Below, in pieces: positions 3,662 through 57,274 of a stretch of 64,000 nt of DNA. The DNA is taken from positions 173,678 through 237,677 of the forward strand of contig CASDOZ010000005.1 in assembly GCA_949282265.1 (NCBI GenBank), in the 5' to 3' direction. The position numbers and the translations under genes are program-made. A model generated the notes under the pieces. That model saw only the letters and a program-made list of their open reading frames with translations. It ran no database searches and was not told where the DNA came from. Positions within the stretch are counted from its first letter, which is position 1. Every line of letters begins with the position of its first letter. The stretch comes from an uncultured Bacteroidales bacterium (GTDB lineage: Bacteria > Bacteroidota > Bacteroidia > Bacteroidales > Paludibacteraceae).

Positions 3662-3758
3662 ACATACTACCTGCATGGGGACGGACTCGGGAACGGTTCC
3701 GCCCCTATTTCCTATAAACACATATTAGCAAACATAACCCTTTAAAAACTTGTCCAAC

Positions 3759-5828
3759 ATGAATCTGTCAAACATCAAAGCCACCCTTATAGCAACCCTC
3801 TTGTCCATGGCCTGCCTATCGTGCCAGCCCGGCCGGAACGGCGGCAACAGCAAACCCGAATACCTGCACGCGCCGTTCGTGCACCCGGGCATGTTCCAGA
3901 GCCAGGCCGACCTGGACACCATGCGCCAAAACGTAGCCCGCGGCACTGAACCTTGGGCAACGGCCTGCAAACAACTGATAGCCGAAACGGACACCGCCAG
4001 ACAAATAAAGGCATACACCTGCGTATCCGTCGGGGCATACAACACCAACAGCATAGGGGGAAAAGAGTTTTCCGAAGACGCCAACGCGGCATACGCAAGC
4101 GCGCTCCTGTGGTACATAACCCAAGACCCCGCCTACGCGCGGCACGCCATCAGGATACTGGACGCATGGTCGGGCAAGCTGTGGAGTCTGGACGGGAACA
4201 ACGCCAAACTCAACATCGGCCTGTTCGGCCACAAATTCCTGAACGCCGCCGAAATACTGAAACACACCGGTTCCGGCTGGACGGAACAGAGCATGCAGCA
4301 GTTCGAGCGGATGCTGCGCACCGTGTTCTACCCCACCATCAAAGACTTCTTTGTCGAAGCCAACGGCAACTGGGACGCCTCCATGATGGCCACCATGATG
4401 TGCATGGGTGTGTTCCTGGACAACCACGACATGTTCAACCGCGCCGTGGAACGCTTCTACCGCGGCGAGGGCAACGCCGGCATCACCCGCTACATCTACC
4501 CCACCGGGCAATGCCAGGAAGCCACGCGCGACTGGGGACACGTGCAGTTGGGATTAGGCGAACTGTCCAAGGCCGCGCAGGTGGCCTGGACGCAGGGGCT
4601 GGACCTGTACGCCGCCGCCGGACACCGGCTCGCACGCGGATATGAATACACGGCGCAGTTCCTCGGCGGCGAAGAGATGCCCGCATTCGGCGACATATCC
4701 TACCGCGAACGCGGCATATCCGACATCTACACCTCCATCCATAACCATTACGCCAAGGTGAAAGGCATCCGGCTCCCGCATACCGGCGCGCTGATGGCCG
4801 CACACCCGGAGGCGGCCAAACCCCTGGGCACGCTGAGCGCCACGCGCGCATACGATAACATCGCTGGAAACGAACCAATCGGAAAGAACATACTGCCGCA
4901 GGAAGACAACATCCGGCCGGAAACGACCGGTGCATCGATGGCGGGCGGCAACAGCATACCCGCCGCGGAAAAGTTGGAAGTACTGCCTGGGGAAGACATT
5001 CAGGCGGCCATAGCCAAGGCCGGAAGCCGCTGGGTCGTGCTCAAGGAAGGGCTGCACGCCATCCGGCAGCCGCTCCGCCTGGAAAGCGGCACCAAGCTGT
5101 GCGGCGAGGGACGCAAAAGCATACTGATGTTGCAGCCGGACTGCCTCGGCCCCACCATCATCAACGCCACGGCCGACATGCACGACATCGTCTTGCAGAA
5201 CTTCGTCGTGGAGGGGGCAACCACGGCGGAAACCGGCTTCGACCCGAACTACGACCGCAGCCTGCGCCTGTGCTCGCACGCCCCGTCGCGCGAGGGCATC
5301 ATCCTGCAATCGGACTCCGTCCATAAAATGCACGGCATCACCCTGCGCAACATGACTGTGCGCAACTGCACGAAAAACGGCGTATATATTGCCGGCGCAA
5401 GGAACATCACCATAGCCCAATGCGACCTCGACAACAACGGCTCCAACGTCGTGCCCGGGCCATATTTCCACCACAACATGCACCTGAGCCACGTGGCGCA
5501 AGCCGACATAACCGGCAGCAGGTTCGACTCCTCCCTGTGGGGCGACGGGCTGCGCATCACCTTCGGCTCGGATGTGCGCATTGCCGGCAACGAGATGGCG
5601 CGCAACGCCCTGTCAGGCATCTACTGCGCGGAATCCGTCCGGATAGACATGTCGGGCAACCTCATGGAAGGCAACAATGTGGCCGGCATCTGCGTGGAGC
5701 AGCTCATGGACGCCTGCACGCAGATAAGCATCAGCGGCAACCGCATCCAGTACAACGGGCAGGCCGGCATCCGTTCCGTCGGGAACAACGGCATTGAGCG
5801 TCAGGACAACCGCGAATCCGGCAACTGA
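3759..5828 (+). CDS. Lipoprotein with an alginate-lyase-like (alpha/alpha-toroid) N-terminal domain and a right-handed parallel beta-helix C-terminal domain; candidate polysaccharide lyase
   Basis: First ATG at 3759 (the ORF opens at TTG 3750). Lipobox LSMACLSC. The N-terminal half resembles the alginate_lyase/heparinase-like fold (HPGMF..ADLD, NGNWDASMM, RDWGHVQ). The C-terminal half has repeated beta-helix turns (NCTKNGVYIAGARNITIAQCDLDNNG.., IAGNEMARNALSGIYC.., SGNRIQYNGQAGI). Confidence 0.7.
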   Translation: MNLSNIKATLIATLLSMACLSCQPGRNGGNSKPEYLHAPFVHPGMFQSQADLDTMRQNVARGTEPWATACKQLIAETDTARQIKAYTCVSVGAYNTNSIGGKEFSEDANAAYASALLWYITQDPAYARHAIRILDAWSGKLWSLDGNNAKLNIGLFGHKFLNAAEILKHTGSGWTEQSMQQFERMLRTVFYPTIKDFFVEANGNWDASMMATMMCMGVFLDNHDMFNRAVERFYRGEGNAGITRYIYPTGQCQEATRDWGHVQLGLGELSKAAQVAWTQGLDLYAAAGHRLARGYEYTAQFLGGEEMPAFGDISYRERGISDIYTSIHNHYAKVKGIRLPHTGALMAAHPEAAKPLGTLSATRAYDNIAGNEPIGKNILPQEDNIRPETTGASMAGGNSIPAAEKLEVLPGEDIQAAIAKAGSRWVVLKEGLHAIRQPLRLESGTKLCGEGRKSILMLQPDCLGPTIINATADMHDIVLQNFVVEGATTAETGFDPNYDRSLRLCSHAPSREGIILQSDSVHKMHGITLRNMTVRNCTKNGVYIAGARNITIAQCDLDNNGSNVVPGPYFHHNMHLSHVAQADITGSRFDSSLWGDGLRITFGSDVRIAGNEMARNALSGIYCAESVRIDMSGNLMEGNNVAGICVEQLMDACTQISISGNRIQYNGQAGIRSVGNNGIERQDNRESGN

Positions 5829-6649
5829 CCGGCAGGCTCTTCCGGCAAAGCCCCGTTTTCCCCTTCGGGCAATGATTCCATCCCGGCATCGGGCACAGCC
5901 GCGTCCGGCGCATCCTCCTGCGCAGCCGCGGCGCGTCCCTTGCGTTTGGCAAGGGTCACCTCGAAGTCGTGCAGGCGGTTGTTCAGCCGCCTGAACAGGT
6001 CGGCATAACGCTCCGGCCCGTACACCACGCACAGCGCGTTGAGCCGCCGCGCCAGCCCGCGGTAGCACGCCAGCAGCTCCTGCCGCGCTTTCAGCGAATC
6101 GCCCGTATGCCGCCACACGTTCTCCATGGCGCGCCGCTTGTCTGTTTCCATATACAGCCGGTGCACCCGCTCCAGCTCGTCCACCCAGGCCGTCAGCCCC
6201 AGCACCTCCACACGCGGCGCACGCGCCTCGCTGCGCATGTCCGCAATGAAATTCTCCATATAGCCGGCCTTGTCGGCCAACGGTTTGCGGTGCACGCCCT
6301 TGTAGGTGTTCACCACCGGCCGCAGCCCGCAGGCCGCCTCGCGCGCCTTTGCCTCATAGTGCCGGTAGCCCGTCCGTATGGTGCGCATAATGCCCATGAA
6401 CACGTCCGTGCGCTGCCTGTCCAGCCCGTCCAGCTGGGGCGTCAGCGCCGACCGCCCGACCACCACAATCACCTGTTCGTAGCGTTCCAGCGCGGCACAG
6501 AACGCCCCGAAGCTCTCCTCGCAATCCAGGTGCGCCGCGTCGGCCCCCTCTTGCCCGATGGCATCACGCACCTCGCAGCAAAAGGTCATGAACTCATTGT
6601 TGCGCAGCTCCCGCACCTGTCCCAACGGCCTGATCATTGTCTTTTCCAT
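5801..6649 (-). CDS. Orphan cytoplasmic protein, paralog A (282 aa, Pro/Glu/Ala-rich C-terminal tail)
   Basis: ATG at 6649 (MEKTMIRPLGQV...). The longer ORF to 6781 runs into non-coding-looking sequence. Clearly homologous to the product of 51576-52370 (shared blocks GAD, LTxQLxxLDRQR, TIR, ExLGL). No signal peptide or TM segment. Confidence 0.7.
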   Translation of the reverse strand: MEKTMIRPLGQVRELRNNEFMTFCCEVRDAIGQEGADAAHLDCEESFGAFCAALERYEQVIVVVGRSALTPQLDGLDRQRTDVFMGIMRTIRTGYRHYEAKAREAACGLRPVVNTYKGVHRKPLADKAGYMENFIADMRSEARAPRVEVLGLTAWVDELERVHRLYMETDKRRAMENVWRHTGDSLKARQELLACYRGLARRLNALCVVYGPERYADLFRRLNNRLHDFEVTLAKRKGRAAAAQEDAPDAAVPDAGMESLPEGENGALPEEPAGQLPDSRLS

Positions 6650-6802
6650 AATATAATTCGTTTGATTGGTTGTCCGCCTGTTTTTTCCGGCCGGCCTGCC
6701 CATCCGCCCGCCAATCCGTCCGCAGGCCTCCGGCCGGATGCCCGTACGTGGTTCCCGCCCATCCTGTGCCTGCGATGGCAAATATAGGCAAAAGAAAGTG
6801 AT

Positions 6803-7084
6803 ATTGCAAACAGGTAATAAATATACGACAGATTATCGAGCCATTTATTACCTAATGCAATTGATATTACCACAAATATAGAACTATCTATTACTTGACG
6901 TAACAAATAGTATAATAAACATAAAACTATTTATTACAATATGTAACAAATAGTTTCCTGAATATAGAATTATATATTACTGAATGTAATAGATTGTATT
7001 ACATATATAATCCTATTCATTACGACAGGTAATAGATAGTTTTACATATATGGATATATAAATTACTGAATGTAATAGATAGTT
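6803..7084. repeat. Tandem array of 7 units, period 42-44 bp, each with palindromic core ATTAC-N5-GTAAY followed by ARATWGT
   Basis: Cores start at 6803 (degenerate ATTGC-N6-GTAAT), 6847 (ATTAC-N5-GCAAT), 6889, 6933, 6976, 7019 and 7062. The block is very AT-rich and lies about 150-435 bp upstream of the minus-strand ATG at 6649. Confidence 0.85.
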
Positions 7085-7245: not shown

Positions 7246-7977
7246 TTACAAGCGGTCTATAACGTAATGTTTGAACCATGAGGGAATGTACTCTATCCCA
7301 TCGGCAAGCGACATGCTCCCGGCGTTCACAGATGCCAGCAGCTTGGGTTCGGACGCGCTGTTGTCGAAAATGAACGCGCGGTCGGCCAGCCTCATGGCCT
7401 CGAGCAGCTGTTCCATGGAACGCCCATAACGTTCCGTGATTTTGTCTTCCGGCACAGAGTGCCCTCCCTGTTGCACCCGTGCGGCCACGCGCTCCTTGTT
7501 CAAGGCAGGGTTTTCCAGCGACACAAAATAGAGGTAAATGCGGTATCCCTTGCTTTTGGCAAGGCGGATATAGTCCACTTTGGAAGGATGGGACATGACG
7601 GTCTCAAAGGTGAACCGATCGCAACAGTCAAGCATTTTTTCCCGCAAATATGCCGAAAGGAAGGACGTAAAATAATCATTCACGGCAACCGGCAAGCACA
7701 AGACTGTTCCCTCAAACCGGCTTCCTGCCTTCAGGATGCCGCCATCAGCCTTGCCAAACAACGCCGATTGGGAAAACCGCGCCCAAAAATCATTCTGGTC
7801 AATAACGGGCAGATAGGTGGCAAAATCGAACCGCAACGTTTCATTGATGCCGCCTTTCAATTCGTCTGCGTTAATGTATTTGCCTAAATGGATACCCGCA
7901 TTCCTTACGATTGCAGTTATAGTCGATTTACCCGAGCCGTTGGGGCCAGCGAAAATGCGGAGGCGTTTGGTAGTCAT
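7246..7977 (-). CDS. Zeta-toxin / COG4185-type P-loop kinase (toxin candidate)
   Basis: Walker A motif FAGPNGSGKST at the N-terminus. ETVMSH and GGHSVPEDKITERY blocks are typical of the zeta-toxin/AAA_33 family. A small partner gene sits 3 nt upstream. Confidence 0.75.
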   Translation of the reverse strand: MTTKRLRIFAGPNGSGKSTITAIVRNAGIHLGKYINADELKGGINETLRFDFATYLPVIDQNDFWARFSQSALFGKADGGILKAGSRFEGTVLCLPVAVNDYFTSFLSAYLREKMLDCCDRFTFETVMSHPSKVDYIRLAKSKGYRIYLYFVSLENPALNKERVAARVQQGGHSVPEDKITERYGRSMEQLLEAMRLADRAFIFDNSASEPKLLASVNAGSMSLADGIEYIPSWFKHYVIDRL

Positions 7978-7980
7978 ACG

Positions 7981-8214
7981 CTATTTCAGTTTGAAAGTGC
8001 GTTGGCTCACTTTGTATTTGCTCTGCTTGACTTCCATGAGCAAGTTTGCACCGTTGTCGCTGACCCGGTATATTTTGTTGCCGCGCAAAACGGTGGCGAC
8101 CTCCCCGTTCGACAGCGTATTCCGGTAAGCATCCTTGCCCCACCGTTTCAGGCCATCCTGAATGCGTTGTTCTTCCGACTTATCCTTACAATTTGTCGTC
8201 TTTTTCTGTTCCAT
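7981..8214 (-). CDS. Small upstream partner of the zeta-like toxin (antitoxin candidate, 77 aa)
   Basis: 77-aa ORF ending 3 nt before the toxin ATG. A TATCTTTG -7 box lies about 40 nt upstream. No recognisable family. Confidence 0.45.
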   Translation of the reverse strand: MEQKKTTNCKDKSEEQRIQDGLKRWGKDAYRNTLSNGEVATVLRGNKIYRVSDNGANLLMEVKQSKYKVSQRTFKLK

Positions 8215-8430: not shown

Positions 8431-11400
8431 CTACTGTTTCAATATCCGGCATGCCGTCCGGGTGCTGCTGTTTTCATTTTCGCAGAGCAGGACATACAGT
8501 CCGGCCGCATAGCTGCTGAAGTCTATTTCACACTTGGGCATGTCGTTCACTGTTTCGTATATCTTCTGTCCGTACACATTATACAAGCGTATGACATTCA
8601 TGCCATCAAAAGGCATCTCCACCTTCAAGAAGTCTGTCACTGGATTCGGATAGACGGACAAGGCGTCATGGTCCTGTCCGGCCGGTTTCAGTGCCGTATC
8701 GTCTTCCCAGCCTTCATGGAAGTTGGTGATATACTTCTCCATAATTTCCATGGTGGACTTTTCAGTGCAGTAGTCCTTGTCGGGCGACACGCTCAAGTGG
8801 TTGCTCTCGTAGAAGTATCCCCCGCACCAAATGGTTGCCGTGAGCTGGTGCTGTTTCAAGTATGAAAATACGGAGTCTATCAGCACCATGTAGCGTTCAT
8901 CGGATTGCTTCGCGCCGTTGTAAGGCACGCCGAACTCACCCAGGATGCCGCGCTTGTTGTTTTCCTCCAACCAGTTGGTAAATGGGTCGAGGCGTTCGGC
9001 ATACACATCGAAGTTATTGCCGATTTCGGTGTCGTAGTCGTTCGTGTAGGTTCCGCTGTTGTTGCTGTCGAAATAGCAGTGCGCCTGGTAAATGATGTTG
9101 TTGCCTATGGGGTCGGTCAGGGTTTCCAATCCTGCGGCATTGCCCGGCCATCCGGCCGCACCCGCATAGTTCTTGCCCTCCACAACGATGGCCGTCTTCT
9201 CATCCACCTTGCGGATTTCATCTATGACGTACTGGTAACATTCCCTCAGCCCGTCCAAGTCCACATCCTTAGGCTCGTTCATCAGGTCGTAACCATAAAT
9301 ATTGCTGAAGCCCTTGAACTCGGTAGCCAGCTTTACCCACACGTCGGCAAACTCTTTCTTGGTCACTCCCGTGCCTTCGGGCGTGGTTTTCCAGTTGGTC
9401 CAGTATCCGTTGGCATTCTTTGTCCGGTAGCGTCCATCAATGGTGAAGAGTGTGTCGTTGCGGGTATATTCGGCATAATCGTGCATGTCGAGCATCACCC
9501 ACATGCCGAGGCGTTCAGCTTCAGCCACAACTTCTTTCATAGCTTCAATGTCCGTCTGCACCAGCGGCCCGTTCACCTCGCTCTGGACACGTTTCCAGCG
9601 GAAGGGGAAACGGATGAGCTTCACGCCTTTCGCGTTGAAGTACCACAGGTCTTCCATTTTGGGCATGGCGTAGTTGGTTCCCAGTACGCCCGGCACTGTT
9701 CCACCTGATGCAGACGACAAGTTAACGCCCAAGAATGGCTGGCGGACATTCGGTAATGTGCCGTCGGCCTTGTCGAATATGGGTTCGCAAGGACCTTCTT
9801 CTTCCTCGCAGCCGTCAGCCACCAGGCCGATAGGTTCCCCTTTGTAGGCAAACACATTGTCAAGGTAGATTTCCATGCCCGGGTAGCCACCGACGCGCAA
9901 ACGCAACACGTAGGCATCCGACAAGTCTACCAAATCCTTGTAATGGCACAACGGAATGCTGAACGACACCCATTGGCCGCGCTGCATGGTGATATAAGGC
10001 ACCGCAGTCGGGCTGTCCACCTTGTTGCCGGCCTTATCGTGCATCCAGAATGTAACCGTGGCCGGCTTGTTGGTAAAGTCAAGCTCGCTCATCAAGTAAA
10101 CGCTTGCATGAAGGTAGTCCATGCCGCTCAAGTCCATGGATGTGCTGTTCTTGTGAATCTTGAAAGGATAGTCGTTCCATTCCGTCAAATGAATCGTTTG
10201 GTTGCCTTCTACAATTTCCACAAATTCGCGATCCTGGTTCTGGTTCTGGCCATAGTACATCAAATTGCCGTTCGCATCCACATCGGTCATGCCCAGTTCA
10301 CTATCCTGATAGCCTTCTTCTTCATACTGTTCGCAAAAAATGGACAATACGTTCGCGGCATCGAGCGTAAAGGTCGGAACGGTTTCGGGAGCACTCACCT
10401 CTACCGCCGTCTGGTACGCATAAATATTGTCCACATAGAACGTACCCGAGCCCTTGAACTGCATCATGATAATCCCGTTCAGTTTCAGGTTCGAGATGGT
10501 GGAAAATTCCACAATCGGCACTTCCATGCTTACCCATTGCCCCGCAATAGTCTGCGGCCAATTGAAGTTGGACAAGTATTTGAAATCCTTGCCGCCCCAG
10601 TCGGCGCTGTTCAGCCCGAACTCAAATTCGCCCGTGCCGGTTTCGCCTGTCCAATAAACGTCCATGTGTATGTAATTGCAAGTGGATATATTCCAAATGG
10701 AAATGTTTATGCCGCTTGTGCTGAGATTTTCCAACACCATGACACTGTCTTCCATATTGCTTGCATAAGGTTGCAGTTTGGCCACTGTGTTCCCTGCATA
10801 GGTTACAGCCAGCGGCTCGGCTTTGGTGGCACGCTTATAGGTGTCGCTGAATGCACTCACCACTTCTGCCTCATTGTGGGTCGGCACGGGAGCTACCGGT
10901 ATGTCCACTCCTTCCACATACTCTTCCTTGTCGCCCCATGCGTATATATTGTCGATATGATATGTTCCCTTTCCCGAGAAACGAATTGCCTGCAAGTTGT
11001 TTGCATCATTCAGACCGGCCTTCACAAATTCCACCATTGGCACATCAATGCTGTTCCATTGGCCGGCTTTCAATGTTGGCCAGTTGTAATCATTTAAAAA
11101 AGTCAGGCTACCGCCAAATGATACTCCTAAACCAAATGAGAATGTACCAGCTGTTTCAGCCCATATATCCATGTGAATATATCCCTTTGTCTGCCCAGTC
11201 CAATTAGACGTGTAACAAACATAGCTGTTGCCAGCGGTTGTTAAAATCTGGTCATCGGTCCCGCTAATGGTATTTACCGTAATTTTATTGTCTCCACCCC
11301 AGCCCTGCGGTTCAGGTCCTTTACCGACCGTTTCATAATGGTCGCTGAACAGCGAAACGACATCAGCCGCATCGTGTTGGGGCGTGGGTGCCGGTTCTGT

Positions 11401-11478
11401 CGGAGCTGCCGCATAAGCCACCTGGAACATCATGCCAGACAGCAAAACGAACAAACTTTTAAAACATGGTTTAGTCAT
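8431..11478 (-). CDS. Multidomain secreted GH5 glycoside hydrolase: signal peptide, three CBM-like modules, GH5 catalytic domain, T9SS C-terminal domain
   Basis: GH5 motifs RFPFRWKRVQ, DMHDY, YDLMNEPKD (acid/base) and GEFGVP (nucleophile). Three roughly 170-aa N-terminal repeats share V.S.FSD.Y...YIHMD.W...GQW.S...Y.DNIYA. The C-terminus (LSVYPNPVTDFLKV...YNVYGQKIY...GLYVLLCE) is typical of Por/T9SS sorting domains. Confidence 0.85.
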   Translation of the reverse strand: MTKPCFKSLFVLLSGMMFQVAYAAAPTEPAPTPQHDAADVVSLFSDHYETVGKGPEPQGWGGDNKITVNTISGTDDQILTTAGNSYVCYTSNWTGQTKGYIHMDIWAETAGTFSFGLGVSFGGSLTFLNDYNWPTLKAGQWNSIDVPMVEFVKAGLNDANNLQAIRFSGKGTYHIDNIYAWGDKEEYVEGVDIPVAPVPTHNEAEVVSAFSDTYKRATKAEPLAVTYAGNTVAKLQPYASNMEDSVMVLENLSTSGINISIWNISTCNYIHMDVYWTGETGTGEFEFGLNSADWGGKDFKYLSNFNWPQTIAGQWVSMEVPIVEFSTISNLKLNGIIMMQFKGSGTFYVDNIYAYQTAVEVSAPETVPTFTLDAANVLSIFCEQYEEEGYQDSELGMTDVDANGNLMYYGQNQNQDREFVEIVEGNQTIHLTEWNDYPFKIHKNSTSMDLSGMDYLHASVYLMSELDFTNKPATVTFWMHDKAGNKVDSPTAVPYITMQRGQWVSFSIPLCHYKDLVDLSDAYVLRLRVGGYPGMEIYLDNVFAYKGEPIGLVADGCEEEEGPCEPIFDKADGTLPNVRQPFLGVNLSSASGGTVPGVLGTNYAMPKMEDLWYFNAKGVKLIRFPFRWKRVQSEVNGPLVQTDIEAMKEVVAEAERLGMWVMLDMHDYAEYTRNDTLFTIDGRYRTKNANGYWTNWKTTPEGTGVTKKEFADVWVKLATEFKGFSNIYGYDLMNEPKDVDLDGLRECYQYVIDEIRKVDEKTAIVVEGKNYAGAAGWPGNAAGLETLTDPIGNNIIYQAHCYFDSNNSGTYTNDYDTEIGNNFDVYAERLDPFTNWLEENNKRGILGEFGVPYNGAKQSDERYMVLIDSVFSYLKQHQLTATIWCGGYFYESNHLSVSPDKDYCTEKSTMEIMEKYITNFHEGWEDDTALKPAGQDHDALSVYPNPVTDFLKVEMPFDGMNVIRLYNVYGQKIYETVNDMPKCEIDFSSYAAGLYVLLCENENSSTRTACRILKQ

Positions 11479-50772: not shown

Positions 50773-51127
50773 GTACTTTTTACAATTCAGGCGCAAAAAT
50801 AATCATTTTTTTCCGAGCACGAAGCATTCCGATGTCCCTTTGTGATAATTCCGCCCGGCAATGCCGCCACGCCGCCACGGCAAAGCAGACAAAACGGGCG
50901 AGAAGCCACTCAAGGCCAGATGGCTCATGGGCACGCGGAAAGAAAGCGGCAGTAAATAAAGCAGCAAGAACCGGAAGCCCAGAACCAGAACAAAGGCACA
51001 GCGACCTAAGGCAGGAAATCCATAAGGGAAAGTCCAGACCGAAAAACCAAATAACGGAGAACATGGTTTATTTTGAACCTTTCAGACATTATATTTATTC
51101 ATAGCTTATTTGGATATACACAATTGT

Positions 51128-51379
51128 TATTTATCCATAAACAATATGATATTGCACATACGCAAGTAGTATTTATCTATAAACAATATCATATTGCGTG
51201 TACGCAAGTAGTATTTATCTATAAACAATATCCTATTGCGTGTACGCAAGTAGTATTTATCCGAAAACAATGTCCTATTGCGTGCACGCAAGCAGTATTT
51301 ATCTATAAACAATGTCATATTGTGCTTGCGCAAGCAGCATTTATCTGCAAACAATGTCCTATTGTGTCTGCGCAAGTAT
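51128..51379. repeat. Tandem array of six exact 42-bp-period units (plus degenerate flanking copies), each with two palindromes
   Basis: Units at 51128, 51170, 51212, 51254, 51296 and 51338. Consensus TATTTATCTATAAACAATRTCMTATTGCGTGYACGCAAGYAG. It contains TTTAT-CT-ATAAA and TTGCG-N4-CGCAA (the unit at 51254 carries the perfect 14-nt palindrome TTGCGTGCACGCAA). Degenerate echoes occur at about 51086-51127 and 51380-51440. Confidence 0.9.
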
Positions 51380-51575
51380 ATTTTATAGAAAAACAAAGCC
51401 AACTTATGCTTATATGCTTATAGTATATGCATAAACAATTTACTTTTTACATAATCCGGATATAATTTATTGTTTGCAGCTTAAATCATGCGTATATAAA
51501 ATTAAAATTCATATATTTGCAGGGAAAACATTATATGCCAAACAGGATTTGCCCATCCTTAACAACCAAACAGCC

Positions 51576-52370
51576 ATGAGAACTGTCACAAACATCCGAA
51601 AAATCGACTTGGGGCATTTGAACCTGAGCGAATACACCAACTTCATGAACCGCGTGCTGGCACTGGTAAACGCAAGCGGTGCAGACAAACTTGGCATTGC
51701 CACGGACGAACTCGCGGCCTTCCAGACCGATGTGGAACTGCTCAACAAACTGCTGAAACAGTCGCAGGCCAACGAGCTGACCATCCAGCTCAGGCAACTT
51801 GACCGGCAGCGCAAAAGCATGATGACCTACATAGCCGGCACCATCCGGAACAGCGCACAGCTACCCATGAAGTCCATGCGGCAGGCCGGACAAGCATTGA
51901 AACTGCCCTTGAAGCCCTACGTGGGCATCGCGCGGCAACCCGCGCAGCAACGGACGGCACAAATCAACAGCCTGCTCCGCGACCTGGGCGGCGACATGGC
52001 AACCCACATGGAAACGCTCGGGCTGTCCGACATGGCAGAGCACTTGCAGCAAACCAACGACTTGTATGCCACGATGACCGACCGGCGCACAGCCACCGAA
52101 GCCGCCAGCCGGCTCGAAAGCAGCCCATCGGCACGGCCGCGCATCAACCTCGAATATGACACGCTCGCACAGATAGCCTTCGCCACCAACCTGCTCCACC
52201 CCACGGCAGAAACGGCCGCCTTTGTGCGCGACCTGAACGCCACCATAGCCGAAACCAAAGCACGCTACAACCTGCGCAAGGCACAAGCCGCTACCGCGGA
52301 AGAACCGGACAGCAGGCCACAGGACAGCACACCAAACACCACCGAAACGGTGGAAACGGCAGAAATATAA
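51576..52370 (+). CDS. Orphan cytoplasmic protein, paralog B (264 aa, acidic/Thr/Pro-rich tail)
   Basis: ATG at 51576 (MRTVTNIRKIDLG...). Homologous to the product of 5801-6649. No signal peptide or TM segment. Confidence 0.7.
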   Translation: MRTVTNIRKIDLGHLNLSEYTNFMNRVLALVNASGADKLGIATDELAAFQTDVELLNKLLKQSQANELTIQLRQLDRQRKSMMTYIAGTIRNSAQLPMKSMRQAGQALKLPLKPYVGIARQPAQQRTAQINSLLRDLGGDMATHMETLGLSDMAEHLQQTNDLYATMTDRRTATEAASRLESSPSARPRINLEYDTLAQIAFATNLLHPTAETAAFVRDLNATIAETKARYNLRKAQAATAEEPDSRPQDSTPNTTETVETAEI

Positions 52371-52388: not shown

Positions 52389-52428
52389 AAAATCCGCGAG
52401 GACAGCATTTTGTCCTTGCGGATTTTTT
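52389..52428. terminator. Bidirectional intrinsic terminator between convergent genes
   Basis: Stem AAAATCCGCGAGGACA/TGTCCTTGCGGATTTT (one mismatch) with loop GCATTT, flanked by A-runs and T-runs. Confidence 0.75.
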
Positions 52429-52462: not shown

Positions 52463-55400
52463 TTACAAGCAGATTTTACGGGTCGCCGCCTGGCCGGAAA
52501 GGGTCGTAGCGCGGACAATGTAAACTCCCTGGCCGGGCATCCGGATTTCCGTATCGGCACTTATGGTGCGGGCTGCCAGCAGACGGCCATCCGCGCCCCA
52601 TACTTCCACGCGCGTGCCTTCCTCAACGCCGCGCACCTTGATGTGCCCTGCCCCCGCAACTATTTCCAGACCGGCCGCCGTAAAAAAACTTTGCGGCAAG
52701 GCGGTTACATGCTGCAAATCGGGCAAAGCATCCGTATCCACGCCATATTCGGCAAAGGGGTCCCAGCCATCCGTTCCTTTTGTCCAGTTGGACAAGGTGA
52801 AATCAACGCCATCGGCCGTGCGCGGCTCGGTGAAAACAGTGGCCCAGGCCACACGTCCCGCAATGGGAGTGTCGCAATCATACTCACCGCAACGTGCACT
52901 CTCGCCGCTCAATCCGCTGTTCCAGCCTGCTGCGGCAATCAAGCTCTCTCCACGATAATCGCCAGCAACACCATTGTAAGCAGAAGTATCCACATAACAA
53001 GCGGCAAAGATGGCTTCTGCTGTATTGGCCGCCCACGGACGTCCCCACAAAGCAGGTTTAGAACCGTTGACTGAAGCAGTCTCTATCTCCGGTACAGCGG
53101 AAATAACGCTGCATTCATAGAAGAACATGCCGCGCGCGCCCGCATTTGTTTTCGGCGCGGTAATGTAAGCCACATCATCTTTGTCGTCCGCCGTGTTGAG
53201 CACAAGGTCGGTCTGGTAACAAGCCAGGTTCATTTCACCGAACAGGTAGTCGCACGCACCCATCAGCGCACCTTTGTAACATGCCACGCGGCCTTCTGCC
53301 CCGTAGAACGAATCCTGGCGGCCAATGACGCGGCAGTTGTTCAGGAAAGTGCGGTCGGCCGTCTTGGCCGTGGCGAATGCCGCCGCGCGCTCGCGGTACG
53401 AACGTTGCTGCACTTCCGTGTTGCCAACCGTAACAGGACGTGCGCCCTTGCTTCCATCGGCTTCATATACGACGTCGGCGGCCTCCTTGGCCGAAATATA
53501 CTGGTTGTAGGAATTTTCAAATATGATATTCTCCGCATAAAAATCCTTGCCTTCGATGACCACAGTCGCGTTCCAATAAGTCGTGCCGGAGCCACCGCCG
53601 TTCACGACACTTGCATAGCCGTTTTCCTTGTTCACCTGCAAGGTGCGCGCATCCCATTTGTAGTCGCTGCCCATACTGGCGTAGTTGTAGCCGTGGCCGT
53701 AATAGCTTGTAATGCGGACGGCGTTTTCGTCAATGTCCACGCCTGCGTTTTTAATGGCAATTGACGGCGTGGCCGATGCATTCACCATGCGGATGCTGTC
53801 CATATCGATGACCAGCATTTCCTCGTAGTTGCCCGGATCTATCATGATGGTAACGCTCTCGTTATTCGGCCGCTCCATCTTGCGGATAGCCGCAAGCGCA
53901 TCGTTGATGGTCTGGTAGTCCTTGTCCGCACCCACGGTAACCGTCGGGGCATAGGGCAACACTTCCACAAACTCTATGGAGGCTATATAAGTGGTCGTCG
54001 CGCCGCCTACCGTTATGTCGGCATAGCCTGCCGCACCCGAATACGACAAAGACAGGGTCTGATTTTTACCGTCAGGTTCCCGCAAGTACTGTTCCCCGTT
54101 GAAGGTTATGTCCCACGAATAGCCCACCGCGACTTTGATAATGCCCGGCCCCGAAACGGGTACGGAAATAGTCAGGTTGGCTGCCTGGCTGCCGTAACTG
54201 CTACCGTGGTATTTGAATTTGCCGCCTTCGGCAAGCGTATAAACCAACCCCGAACACGGGTTCTTGACATTGTTCGACGCATCGTAATTATTCGTGTCCT
54301 TGAAGTCCCAGCTCGTTATGGCGGTGGTGAAATCGATGGTTTTTGTAACCGCCGCACCATCCACGTGCAGGTTGGAAGTAAGCATTTGCGTGAATGCACC
54401 GCTGTTTTCCACCTTGACACTATACACGCCATCGCGCAGGGCAATCGCATCCGGACCGGTAAAGGTGTACACATAACCTTCCTCGTTCAAGTTGGTGAAT
54501 ATGAAGGTGGCCGCCGCCAAATCTTCCAGCGACGCGCCGGTCGGGTTGATGGTCACGGTGTAAACCGGCTTGGCCGTGAAAGGCAAGTCCAGCGTGCCAT
54601 CGGCTGTTGCCGAAAGCGTAGTTTTATCCAAATTATAATCATTCACGTTCAGGGCGGCTACGCCATATTCCACCCCGTTTTCCAACTGCAGGGAGAAAGT
54701 TCCGGCAGTACGGTCCAGTTCAATTTCCGGCATATAGGTCTTGTCGTCCGGTTTGCTGAACACGAATTCGACCTTGGCCAACTGTTCGGCCGGCAGTCCG
54801 CTGACATTGCCGGACACAGTGACCAAATCAACGCCGGTAATGGTAATATTATGTGTAAAGGATTCGATACCATCGGCCAGGGAGCACAAATCTTCCGTAA
54901 CCACATAGCCGTTGGCATTCAGCAAACCGACCTCATAATCGTAGCCGGCCGCCAGCTCGACGCTGTACGCGCCATCAGCCGGTGTTGCCGTGGCGCTCCA
55001 GCCGGTCGTCCGGTTGGTGAACTGCAACTGGTATCCTGCGGGGATATCGGTCGGTGCAGTTACCGTTCCGCTGACTGCAACCGGCTGCGCCGGATAACGG
55101 AGCACACGTGCTATCACCAATTTTTCGTTTATGCAATAGATTTTATGTTCACCGGCTTCGCTTACGTAGAATGTCAGTTTTTCCGCCTTGGCTGCGTTTG
55201 TAAATTCTCCCGTCTGGATTTTGCCGCCCGGCGATGCAAACTCGTAAGTGGCCGCACTCGTATTGGAGCCGACCCAGAACTCAACTTTGTCGTTCGGTTC
55301 ATAAGTGGATGCCAGGTACACGTTTGATGTACTGCTGGAATTGGAATAGAGATAACCTGTATATTCGTTTTTGGCAGCGTCTTTCAAAGATTTGTTGTCA

Positions 55401-55714
55401 TAGCGCGTCAGGGCTGTGTTCGTAGTCCGATAACGGTGATGCGCTTTTCCGCCATCATAAAAACGGATATTGCAGCTGTCGCTTGCCGTCCATGCCCCCA
55501 TTTGCACCCCCGATGTACCGGGAGTCTCATCCGGAAACCAGCTGTTGATTTCATCGACACTCAGCATGTTTTCATACGTTTGTGTATCCAACAGTTCCGC
55601 ACCGAAATCCCACACCTGCACTTTTGGAGCAGCAGTCGTCGTCGCGAATGTACCGAACATGGCTGCCGCCAGACACAGGCAAAAACGTGTTTTCAAGTAA
55701 ATCTGTGTTTTCAT
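52463..55714 (-). CDS. Large secreted CE8 pectin methylesterase-like protein with N-terminal beta-sandwich repeats and T9SS C-terminal domain
   Basis: CE8 motifs DPGNYEE (GxYxE), GRQDSFYG (QDTL-like), CDYLFG (DFIFG-like) and WGRPW. The C-terminus (VEVWGADGRLL...GVYIVRATT...) is T9SS-CTD-like. Start at ATG 55714 with a signal peptide. Confidence 0.8.
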   Translation of the reverse strand: MKTQIYLKTRFCLCLAAAMFGTFATTTAAPKVQVWDFGAELLDTQTYENMLSVDEINSWFPDETPGTSGVQMGAWTASDSCNIRFYDGGKAHHRYRTTNTALTRYDNKSLKDAAKNEYTGYLYSNSSSTSNVYLASTYEPNDKVEFWVGSNTSAATYEFASPGGKIQTGEFTNAAKAEKLTFYVSEAGEHKIYCINEKLVIARVLRYPAQPVAVSGTVTAPTDIPAGYQLQFTNRTTGWSATATPADGAYSVELAAGYDYEVGLLNANGYVVTEDLCSLADGIESFTHNITITGVDLVTVSGNVSGLPAEQLAKVEFVFSKPDDKTYMPEIELDRTAGTFSLQLENGVEYGVAALNVNDYNLDKTTLSATADGTLDLPFTAKPVYTVTINPTGASLEDLAAATFIFTNLNEEGYVYTFTGPDAIALRDGVYSVKVENSGAFTQMLTSNLHVDGAAVTKTIDFTTAITSWDFKDTNNYDASNNVKNPCSGLVYTLAEGGKFKYHGSSYGSQAANLTISVPVSGPGIIKVAVGYSWDITFNGEQYLREPDGKNQTLSLSYSGAAGYADITVGGATTTYIASIEFVEVLPYAPTVTVGADKDYQTINDALAAIRKMERPNNESVTIMIDPGNYEEMLVIDMDSIRMVNASATPSIAIKNAGVDIDENAVRITSYYGHGYNYASMGSDYKWDARTLQVNKENGYASVVNGGGSGTTYWNATVVIEGKDFYAENIIFENSYNQYISAKEAADVVYEADGSKGARPVTVGNTEVQQRSYRERAAAFATAKTADRTFLNNCRVIGRQDSFYGAEGRVACYKGALMGACDYLFGEMNLACYQTDLVLNTADDKDDVAYITAPKTNAGARGMFFYECSVISAVPEIETASVNGSKPALWGRPWAANTAEAIFAACYVDTSAYNGVAGDYRGESLIAAAGWNSGLSGESARCGEYDCDTPIAGRVAWATVFTEPRTADGVDFTLSNWTKGTDGWDPFAEYGVDTDALPDLQHVTALPQSFFTAAGLEIVAGAGHIKVRGVEEGTRVEVWGADGRLLAARTISADTEIRMPGQGVYIVRATTLSGQAATRKICL

Positions 55715-55741
55715 ATCATTGTGTATTATGTTTTTCGGGCG

Positions 55742-55749
55742 CAAAAGTA
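55742..55749 (-). promoter_or_regulatory. -7 box (TACTTTTG on minus strand) for the CE8 gene
   Basis: Matches TAnnTTTG and lies about 28 nt upstream of the ATG at 55714. Confidence 0.45.
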
Positions 55750-55848
55750 CGGACACACGTACAATGGCATGTGCAAAATTTGTCGGTTTAGAAGCAATTA
55801 TTTGCCATCCGTCGCATTAGTTGGCCCGGGCAAGGAATACATGCTGCA

Positions 55849-57203: not shown

Positions 57204-57274
57204 TTGTCTCACGAGGATTCGAACCTCGACAGACAGTACCAAAAACTGTAGTGCTACCATTACACCATGAGACA
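57204..57274 (-). tRNA. tRNA-Gln (anticodon UUG)
   Basis: Hand-folded cloverleaf on the minus strand. Acceptor TGTCTCA/TGAGACA (U1:A72). D-arm GGTGTAATGGTAGCAC. Anticodon stem ACAGT/ACTGT with loop TTTTGGT. T-arm CGAGG-TTCGAAT-CCTCG. Discriminator A. CCA is not encoded. Confidence 0.85.

Follow-up and report, generated by a model that had tools for sequence, protein, structure and literature searches.

Type III toxin-antitoxin (TA) systems (ToxIN, CptIN, TenpIN and AbiQ/antiQ) carry direct repeats of 34-45 nt, specific to their protein and closing on a partial last unit, upstream of a single gene. In the oriP family of repeats of Epstein-Barr virus (EBV), bound by EBNA1, and in the baculovirus hr elements, bound by IE1, an enhancer or maintenance element is built from regular units, each with a palindrome of about 18-28 bp that is read by a dimer; these are eukaryotic viral systems of unrelated folds, with periods of 30 bp and about 70 bp. 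In BOX elements, boxB measures 45 bp. The BrickBuilt element of Porphyromonas gingivalis, a MITE (a miniature transposable element with inverted repeats), is made of 23-nt bricks and has no single gene family as its partner (PMC4596501). Here we describe the pairing of genes of the Pfam family DUF6261 with upstream arrays of 41-43-bp palindromic repeats, starting from two such genes, A and B, in a 64-kb window (the whole stretch analysed, from contig CASDOZ010000005.1) of an uncultured bacterium of the Bacteroidales, family Paludibacteraceae, across which open reading frames (ORFs), repeats, Pfam and Rfam matches and promoters were checked. We suggest that each DUF6261 protein recognises its own array in a sequence-specific manner, which the sequence comparisons make probable for the DNA and RNA forms of the array taken together.

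Like the type III TA systems, DUF6261 has tandem repeats directly upstream of the gene. However, the type III toxins are endoribonucleases of the ToxN/AbiQ/CptN/TenpN fold, whereas DUF6261 is predicted to be an unrelated helical bundle and has no PADLOC match; in addition, a terminator between array and gene is missing at both A and B, the arrays show no G.U signature, and the promoter in the window lies downstream of the array. Type III repeats are transcribed together with the toxin gene from an upstream promoter, with a terminator in between; an upstream promoter of this kind may exist at five other DUF6261 loci (L008, L010, L013, L014 and L118), where a -7 box abuts the array. The likeness to the EBNA1 and IE1 systems lies in the arrays of palindrome-bearing units, and the difference in host, fold and period. 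Plasmid iterons and their Rep proteins combine 4-7 direct repeats beside the gene of the binder with co-evolution and autoregulation, but iterons are 17-22 bp long, spaced at about 22 bp, non-palindromic and read by a winged-helix Rep, whereas DUF6261 is chromosomal, multi-copy and all-alpha. BrickBuilt, from a member of the Bacteroidales, and the pneumococcal BOX elements are also intergenic minisatellites able to affect neighbouring transcription; BrickBuilt, however, is a MITE with terminal repeats and no matched protein specificity, whereas the arrays described here have DUF6261 as a fixed partner in 30 of 35 loci. An identity with BrickBuilt or BOX was considered and set aside in view of the 23-nt bricks, the absence of a gene partner and the absence of flanking modules common to the DUF6261 loci.

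Two further comparisons concern the protein. Ribbon-helix-helix (RHH) binders (omega of pSM19035, ParG/parH of TP228, CopG, MetJ and Arc) have a small N-terminal reading element, private site sequences, and dimers that bind tandem sites upstream of their own gene in a cooperative and autoregulatory way, features that DUF6261 may share. They differ from DUF6261 in that the latter has no beta-strand in AlphaFold2 (AF2) models, no RHH match in Pfam or Foldseek and no ParA partner, is 240-300 aa long with a large acidic helical bundle, and has a period of 41-43 bp as against heptads or octads of 7-8 bp. The repeat-variable diresidues of TALE proteins, and the PUF/PPR proteins, have in common with it a simple map from amino acid to base (in DUF6261 His-G, Ser-C, Asn-A, a small residue-T, and Arg/Lys-G on the opposite strand), but here a single short segment would read two or three half-site positions, not one base per repeat. 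In function the nearest of all these are the dimeric RHH binders omega, ParG and CopG and the iteron/Rep modules, with EBNA1 and IE1 by analogy; type III TA arrays come near in layout. DUF6261 departs from each of them in the fold that defines it. Set among these systems, DUF6261 and its repeats would form an autoregulatory site-specific binder with its operator array, on a new fold, with an unusually simple code and a four-turn phasing.

The products of A and B are homologous but divergent, as an earlier note on this DNA had claimed: they share 27% identity over 207 aa (BLASTP, E 5e-16), and the sequence blocks quoted in the note lie within the alignment. Its guess that they belong to a Bacteroidales-restricted family of unknown function was apt, as each covers the full 154-position model of Pfam PF19775 (DUF6261) above the gathering score of 27 bits. 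A hidden Markov model (HMM) scan of all ORFs found no third DUF6261 gene in the window. Each gene has its own array upstream, in the same orientation as the gene, and these two, at 42 and 43 bp, are the only arrays with a period above 18 bp that Tandem Repeats Finder (TRF) detected in the 64 kb; here too the earlier description was accurate.

This pairing extends across the family. A profile search of 1.84 billion representative proteins placed 6171 clusters (at 50% identity) in DUF6261 at E<1e-3, confined mainly to Bacteroidales of animal guts. Homologous loci, here given handles from L001 upwards, were gathered by exact-protein look-ups, a GTDB genome scan and annotated records, and their proteins are only 20-27% identical to B. 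Profiling the family against the presence of arrays, as the earlier note had proposed, gave a 41-43-bp array upstream in 30 of the 35 assessable loci of other Bacteroidales, that is, distinct DUF6261 loci for which 250 bp or more of the sequence upstream was available. DUF6261 is an uncharacterised domain, not a known family unconnected with DNA, and its relatives in other genomes have arrays. The arrays hold 2-9 palindrome-bearing copies and end 33-260 bp (mostly 33-100) before the start codon. The exceptions without an array are L015, the weak family members L026 and L027, and the human-gut scaffolds L029 and L030, of which L029 has two degenerate copies 42 bp apart all the same. Over about 136 kb of related loci, arrays with a period of 38-46 bp were found in the roughly 300 bp upstream of DUF6261 in 22 of 25 loci and elsewhere only twice. 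Three extra DUF6261 genes, found on contigs that had been fetched for another array, each had a 41-bp array of their own with a different palindrome.

The carriers include Prevotellaceae, Paludibacteraceae, Tannerella, Dysgonomonadaceae, Odoribacteraceae and the cultured Prevotella nigrescens, and the loci lie on chromosomes, a genome holding several paralogues. Among 72,556 plasmid records there was one match, on a 568-kb replicon; a protein scan of viral contigs found no relatives, and a DNA-pattern scan of such contigs returned mostly coding repeats of 14 aa. No neighbouring gene is conserved across the loci compared, and the module therefore consists of one gene and one array.

Each unit is made up of a palindrome of about 14-22 bp and a linker. 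The commonest palindrome, found in most loci, reads CTTGC-[3-4 variable bases]-[centre 0-8]-[mirror]-GCAAG; CTTTC...GAAAG occurs in a second clade, and TTAC...GTAA in window A. A family-wide architecture TTxC...GxAA fits both window palindromes, that of B (TTGC...GCAA) being of the commonest type, and the outer half-site is thus shared while the inner positions are private to each array. The two window palindromes had been described as unrelated, which this common frame shows not to be wholly so. In gene-oriented arrays, 95% of 1160 arm pairs are Watson-Crick. An orientation rule based on GCAAG[TC] was also tried and failed, the motif itself being palindromic.

The arrays change much faster than the proteins, with the changes concentrated in the inner bases and symmetric on both arms. 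Two paralogues of one metagenome-assembled genome (MAG), L009 and L010, have 86% identical proteins and the sites GCGGCAttTGCCGC and GCGACCcgGGTCGC (in longer form CTTGCGGCAttTGCCGCAAG and CTTGCGACCcgGGTCGCAAG). L071 and L122 are 94% identical and have TTGCCGA..TCGGCAA and TTGCTCA..TGAGCAA, and 9 of their 18 protein differences fall within residues 2-13. Close paralogues with unlike palindromes differ mainly in the first 13 residues, and identical N-termini go with identical palindromes, as in L057/L100 (90% identity) and L005/L012 (95%).

Evidence for a residue-base code comes from 28 non-redundant pairs of protein and palindrome, with the N-termini anchored on the conserved Leu of the motif ..D-L-x-H-L-R-N-E-E-H-F. 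The residue just before this Leu (position -1) tracks the first inner base after TTGC: the base is G in 9/9 cases with His and C in 6/6 with Ser, while Asn goes with A (4) or C (2), Arg with G (2) or A (1), and Ala with G (2) or T (1). The mutual information (MI) is 1.28 bit, a value reached in 0 of 10^6 permutations. When all 236 alignment columns were scanned blindly against three DNA positions, the column of residue -1 came first, and its p-value (~3e-6) survived Bonferroni correction. Ser at -1 is encoded by AGY in four loci and TCG in one, and the link therefore operates at the level of the amino acid and is not an echo of the nucleotides. Inner bases 2 and 3 follow residue -4 (p ~7e-4), Asp occurring with xGA (9/10) and Lys/Arg with xxC (6/6). 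This pattern fits contacts of Asp with cytosine, and of Arg/Lys with guanine, in the opposite strand; positions -1 and -4 lie on one face of a helical turn.

The association is not explained by phylogeny. A rule trained only on relatives less than 35% identical in the protein body named the right base in 21 of 27 loci, including all of the His and Ser classes, compared with 12/27 for the majority base and 11/28 for the nearest relative. Among distant pairs, the same residue went with the same base in 44 of 53, and different residues did so in 43 of 214. Further supporting the rule, four blind checks made after it was set all held: P0016 (His) has TTGC-G, P0009 (Asn) TTGC-A, P0008 (Ser) TTTC-C, and Prevotella nigrescens (Ser at -1, Asp at -4) TTGC-CGA. 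Gene B conforms as well, with His14 (codon 51615-51617) at -1 and G after TTGC in its array. The earlier claim that paralogue and palindrome vary together, as expected if the protein recognises its own array, is thereby strengthened by the pairing, the residue -1 code and the blind checks.

Coordinates of the window features are collected in Table 1. The unit consensus of array B is TATTTATCTATAAACAATATCATATTGCGTGTACGCAAGTAG, with the main palindrome TTGC-GT|gt|AC-GCAA (TTGCGTgtACGCAA) and the variants CAATATcATATTG and TTTATctATAAA, and degenerate units flank the array on both sides, at ~51086 and 51380-51447. The minus-strand unit consensus of array A begins AACTATCTATTACATTCAGTAATATATAG, and its palindrome, TATTAC-N5-GTAATA, sits within a longer dyad, (ACTAT)nTATTAC-N5-GTAATAn(ATAGT). 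The orthologues L001 and L031 retain this array, with conserved arms and a variable N5 spacer. The Bacteroidetes -7 promoter consensus is TAnnTTTG, and canonical promoters lie between array and gene at both A and B. The promoter of gene A is invariant in three orthologous loci, and the last degenerate palindrome of array A, TATTACctgttTGCAATA, overlaps its -33 element. The terminator right behind gene B makes it monocistronic. For gene A, the family alignment and N-terminal register suggest that the real start is the ATG at 6637, giving MIRPLGQVRE-LRNNEF; for gene B, the upstream TTG at 51474 is not supported as a start by the family alignment.

Table 1. Positions of the DUF6261 modules and other features in the 64-kb window.
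Feature	Position	Strand	Description
DUF6261 gene B	51576-52370	+	264 aa; Pfam PF19775 E 1.8e-33, 116.1 bits
Proposed recognition segment I10-D11-L12-G13-H14-L15 of B	codons 51603-51620	+	residue/base covariation
Array B	51128-51383	+	TRF period 42, 6.1 copies, 86% match; repeat search: 6 copies, exact 42-bp spacing
Exact Bacteroidetes -7 box TATATTTG	51512-51519	+	motif scan; between array B and start, 64 nt before ATG
Strong intrinsic terminator	52389-52426	+	17-bp stem then T run, directly after gene B
DUF6261 gene A	5801-6649	-	282 aa from ATG at 6649; PF19775 E 3.1e-28, 99.1 bits
Promoter of gene A	6779-6810	-	-33 TTTG (6810-6807), 20-nt spacer, -7 TATATTTG (6786-6779)
Array A	6874-7084	-	TRF period 43, about 5 copies; 5-6 units in all; degenerate copies on to ~6800
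GC-rich insertion (GCCTGCGGACGGATTGGCGGGCGGATGGGCAGGCCGGCCGG...)	6655-6700	-	44 nt, in 5' untranslated region between promoter and start of gene A
LRNEE-coding palindrome CTTCGCAACGAAG	51606-51640		CTTCG-caa-CGAAG
Spurious repeat-encoded ORF	51073-51423		called over array B
Zeta-toxin-like P-loop kinase gene	7246-7977	-	Pfam Zeta_toxin E 1.5e-8
ORF preceding zeta-toxin-like gene	7981-8214	-	77 aa; no Pfam match
Large polysaccharide-degrading enzyme	52463-55756	-	
Large polysaccharide-degrading enzyme	8431-11478	-	
Large polysaccharide-degrading enzyme	3750-5828	+	
tRNA gene	57204-57274	-	sole Rfam gathering-threshold match in the window

Given the conserved pairing of gene and array, the palindrome architecture and the covariation of residue and base, we infer that the proteins bind physically, in a dimeric state, to DNA and not to RNA, and that this results in autoregulation. 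We suggest that DUF6261 is a new family of sequence-specific nucleic-acid-binding proteins, each acting, likely as a dimer, on its own array. A short basic N-terminal segment (consensus M-K-I-x-K-x-D-L-x-H-L-R-N) would read the inner base pairs of the half-sites, residue -1 setting the first base after TTGC and residue -4 the next two; the only basic parts of the proteins are the N-terminal ~12 residues and, in many members, a C-terminal RKGRxxKK tail. The period of 41-43 bp is close to 4 x 10.5, or four turns of B-DNA, which would set one dimer after another along the same face of the DNA, where their large acidic helical bodies could cooperate. The position of the array differs between lineages: it lies either immediately upstream of the promoter or between the promoter and the gene, and at locus A it overlaps the -33 box. 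Its occupancy would feed back on transcription of the gene by occlusion or roadblock. Cross-talk between paralogues would be avoided as symmetric changes of the inner bases are matched by changes of the N-terminal residues. That the proteins bind their arrays in just this form, as dimers on duplex operators with an autoregulatory effect, we hold to have about an even chance of being correct.

A number of findings weigh against this proposal, and the first group concerns the fold. AF2 models of B (26 sequences, pLDDT 89.4) and of P0007 (17 sequences, pLDDT 87.8) are both all-helical bundles with helices of at least 50 residues and an extended N-terminal segment that ends in a short turn. Neither contains a beta-strand by DSSP, residues 1-11 being extended, although monomer models miss strands formed only in a dimer. 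Foldseek searches of the Protein Data Bank (PDB) with both models, and of BFVD, returned only generic long-helix matches and none below E 0.05; a weak analogue that recurred was the helical bimodular ligand-binding domain of McpS (probability 0.6-0.84, TM ~0.3). The N-terminal 60 aa gave no Pfam match to an RHH or helix-turn-helix (HTH) domain even at E 10, Pfam, NCBIfam and PDB sequence searches found no HTH or ParB/Srx, and a PDB sequence profile search gave nothing below E 0.15. The models accordingly point to a new all-helical bundle without a recognisable DNA-binding fold, and the HTH, RHH or ParB-like fold anticipated in the earlier note found no backing from HMMs or from AF2 with Foldseek; nor does anything specific indicate the partition-like role that it had entertained. 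No NCBIfam model matches A or B, the PHROGs search yielded nothing better than E 0.007, its weak matches being to families without a known function, and neither Pfam nor NCBIfam assigns a function to DUF6261. The literature, in the sources searched, offered no function for DUF6261 and nothing on 42-bp repeats in Bacteroides or Prevotella or on type III TA in Bacteroidetes. A conserved Arg, Arg, Tyr set resembling that of tyrosine recombinases was considered and dropped, the protein being an all-helical bundle without similarity to integrases.

Other adverse points concern charge, the code and the arrays. The family is mostly acidic (median pI 5.6-5.7), and A and B have acidic, Pro/Thr-rich tails in place of the basic RKGRxxKK tail, the low-complexity tails that the earlier note had described being present in both. 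Window A, in which residue -1 is Glu and the site, TTAC-N5-GTAA, is compact, falls outside the code, and the covariation sample comprises 28 pairs in a permutation test that ignores phylogeny. Two arrays hold two variants each, both fully compensated: in L018 (2119-2462), TTCTACC..GGTAGAA x3 stands beside TTCGCCC..GGGCGAA x5, and in L014 (761-954), TTGCAGA..TCTGCAA stands beside TTGCACA..TGTGCAA. These may be hybrids that arose by recombination between the arrays of paralogues.

Arrays also occur away from DUF6261 genes. Metagenome contigs were scanned for runs of three TTGC-N10-GCAA sites spaced 40-43 bp apart; of the 120 loci returned, 105 had a TRF period of 40-43. Among 48 ORFs starting less than 200 bp from the scanned arrays, 12 were DUF6261, the only recurrent and diverse family, the next families being single loci sampled repeatedly. 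Of the non-coding arrays with more than 600 bp on either side, however, 9 had DUF6261 directly downstream and 29 of 38 did not. These orphan arrays are found in all gene orientations, some between convergent genes; some belong to the same sequence family as arrays linked to DUF6261, and where a contig carries an orphan as well as a DUF6261 gene, their palindromes are not the same. Orphans with the same 41-43-bp architecture lie in L048 (13110-13301), L052, L054, L058, L097, L103, L138, L146, L156, L157, L159 and others, and two orphan sequence families, GGCGTTTGCGGGTACTCCCGCAAGTCTCGCGGCAAATGCTTT and TGCTAAGTTGTGAGCAAGCCTCAAAATATTATTTTGGCATT, recur in unrelated contexts. Such orphans may serve other paralogues as targets, or may be remnants or dispersed repeats.

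The last of the adverse points concern transcription and lead to the most serious alternative, in which the array is transcribed as a 5' leader or repeat RNA whose hairpins DUF6261 binds, the N-terminal peptide reading the upper stem. The result would be autoregulation of translation or stability, or a pair resembling type III TA in which the repeat RNA neutralises the protein. An exact -7 box immediately precedes the first unit in L008, L010, L013, L014 and L118, and in about 35 loci none was found in the short (~40-nt), AT-rich gap between array and gene; where the gap has no box, the array there is therefore probably a transcribed leader, as it probably is where the box precedes the first unit, and a leader would suit an RNA target. 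The anatomy is also like that of ToxI/ToxN, with 2-9 private direct repeats of about 40 nt and a partial last unit upstream of one gene. The sense-strand linkers are A/C-rich in the largest subfamily, though not generally across clades, compensated variants occur within single arrays, and the residue-base covariation would equally fit the reading of a base pair in an RNA stem.

Against an RNA target, the asymmetry between G.U and A.C mismatches, which was meant to reveal a sense-strand hairpin, came out flat, with 16 GU against 22 AC among the 1160 arm pairs (17 against 20 in an earlier count). Palindromy reaches into a centre of 0-2 nt, too short for a loop and beyond what a hairpin needs, in 10 of 17 even-length sites (25% expected, p 0.003). 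Canonical promoters lie downstream of the array in A, B and three orthologues of A, and the differences from type III TA listed above (terminator, fold and PADLOC) count here as well. Rfam 15 has no family for the arrays; seven loci at E<=1 gave only spurious, sub-threshold matches to microRNAs and small RNAs. The residue-base code fits classical major-groove chemistry on both strands, and the DNA model accommodates both promoter layouts because a DNA-bound array downstream of a promoter would be a roadblock. A sigma-54 promoter in the last repeat unit was considered too and dropped, as its GG/GC elements are not conserved across loci. On these sequence grounds a duplex DNA read by a dimer is favoured over the RNA form, which we consider a tentative and rather unlikely alternative.

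Less probable still, and in our view doubtful, is that the arrays are read by another host factor or act through their shape (hairpin or cruciform, or curvature), DUF6261 being a regulated cargo, for example a sensor-like helical bundle, and the correlation a product of shared descent. The acidic body without a recognisable nucleic-acid-binding fold, the McpS ligand-binding domain as best weak structural analogue, and the presence of arrays of the same architecture away from DUF6261 genes would all agree with such a role. It would, however, require a separate factor for each of dozens of private palindromes, and residue -1 outperforms phylogeny across subfamilies less than 35% identical, the rule held when checked blind, and the differences between near-identical paralogues cluster in the N-terminal 13 residues exactly when their palindromes differ. 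Finally, selfish minisatellites or MITE-like repeats, of the BrickBuilt or BOX kind, that insert or expand beside DUF6261, or remnants of plasmid iteron/Rep or centromere/partition modules, could account for near-identical array families in different contexts, orphan copies included, for copy numbers of 5.5 and 7.1 in the paralogues L005 and L012, and for the frequent breaks of assemblies at arrays, but are very improbable, since no terminal inverted repeats or transposase are associated, BrickBuilt bricks are of another length and tied to no gene family (PMC4596501), position, orientation and distance to the start codon are kept across proteins 20-30% identical, no gene of the ParA or Rep type was found near the loci examined, and the loci are chromosomal and multi-paralogue, with the single plasmid match noted above. 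A synteny of array and gene that is kept in deep branches, along with N-terminal changes to match, would also speak against this reading. Given the orphan copies, some dispersal of arrays may nevertheless have taken place.

Several further observations were made on the modules and their surroundings. The GC-rich insertion in the 5' untranslated region of gene A is absent from the orthologous loci L001 and L031. The codons of the LRNEE motif in gene B themselves form a palindrome, with equivalents in L002-L022, which resembles the CGCAA arm of the upstream repeats and may be a coincidence of codon choice or an extra site within the coding sequence. The zeta-toxin-like gene and the 77-aa ORF, a possible TA pair of the epsilon/zeta type, lie immediately upstream of array A, an arrangement also conserved in L001 and L031. 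Next to both DUF6261 modules are genes for large enzymes that break down polysaccharides: a pectinesterase, a GH5 cellulase bearing the T9SS sorting domain Por_Secre_tail, and a protein of the alginate-lyase/beta-helix type. This neighbourhood is probably incidental, because no such neighbour is conserved at other loci.

Gene calls are affected at several loci. Gene B is called from the upstream TTG in many database entries, at 298 aa as against 264 aa, and in P. nigrescens FDAARGOS_1486 (NZ_CP082843.1, K8O81_RS10460, protein WP_004367630; L028 2839-3792) the RefSeq start lies inside the array, whereas the family register would put it near locus position 2977. Repeat-encoded ORFs 100-130 aa long are also called, spuriously, over the arrays, as in the window and in L005 (3640-4020). 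In L026, a Saccharicrinis MAG, a 41-bp array of about six units (1096-1300) lies downstream of the weak DUF6261-like gene (320-973) and upstream of an ion-transport gene, the reverse of the usual order. Long intergenic tandem repeats of 118-167 bp, unrelated in sequence to the 42-bp arrays, were also seen in termite-gut and oral Bacteroidales contigs: L003 8247-8503 (123 bp x2.1), L009 408-731 (118 bp x2.8), L028 2189-2584 (120 bp x3.3) and L027 3234-3667 (167 bp x2.6).

The 41-43-bp repeats break metagenome assemblies and mislead gene calls, and if the favoured reading of DUF6261 proteins as binders of their own arrays is true, this recurrent class of minisatellites would be explained. The proteins would then represent a new nucleic-acid-binding fold and, with their arrays, would supply synthetic biology with many orthogonal protein/operator pairs for Bacteroides-like hosts. 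More tentatively, and with less than even confidence, they may make up a hitherto unrecognised, Bacteroidales-wide class of DNA binders with a new fold, a code of nearly one residue to one base, hundreds of mutually orthogonal pairs, several to a genome, and cooperative arrays on palindromes phased at four turns, for which the orphan arrays would be further targets in a regulon or in chromosome organisation. In that case the family would be a ready natural set of repressor/operator pairs, programmable and orthogonal, for gut Bacteroidales. For DUF6261 itself, the analysis provides a concrete hypothesis of function, the recognition of a private array, together with the residues that would be responsible and the simple code that they would follow.

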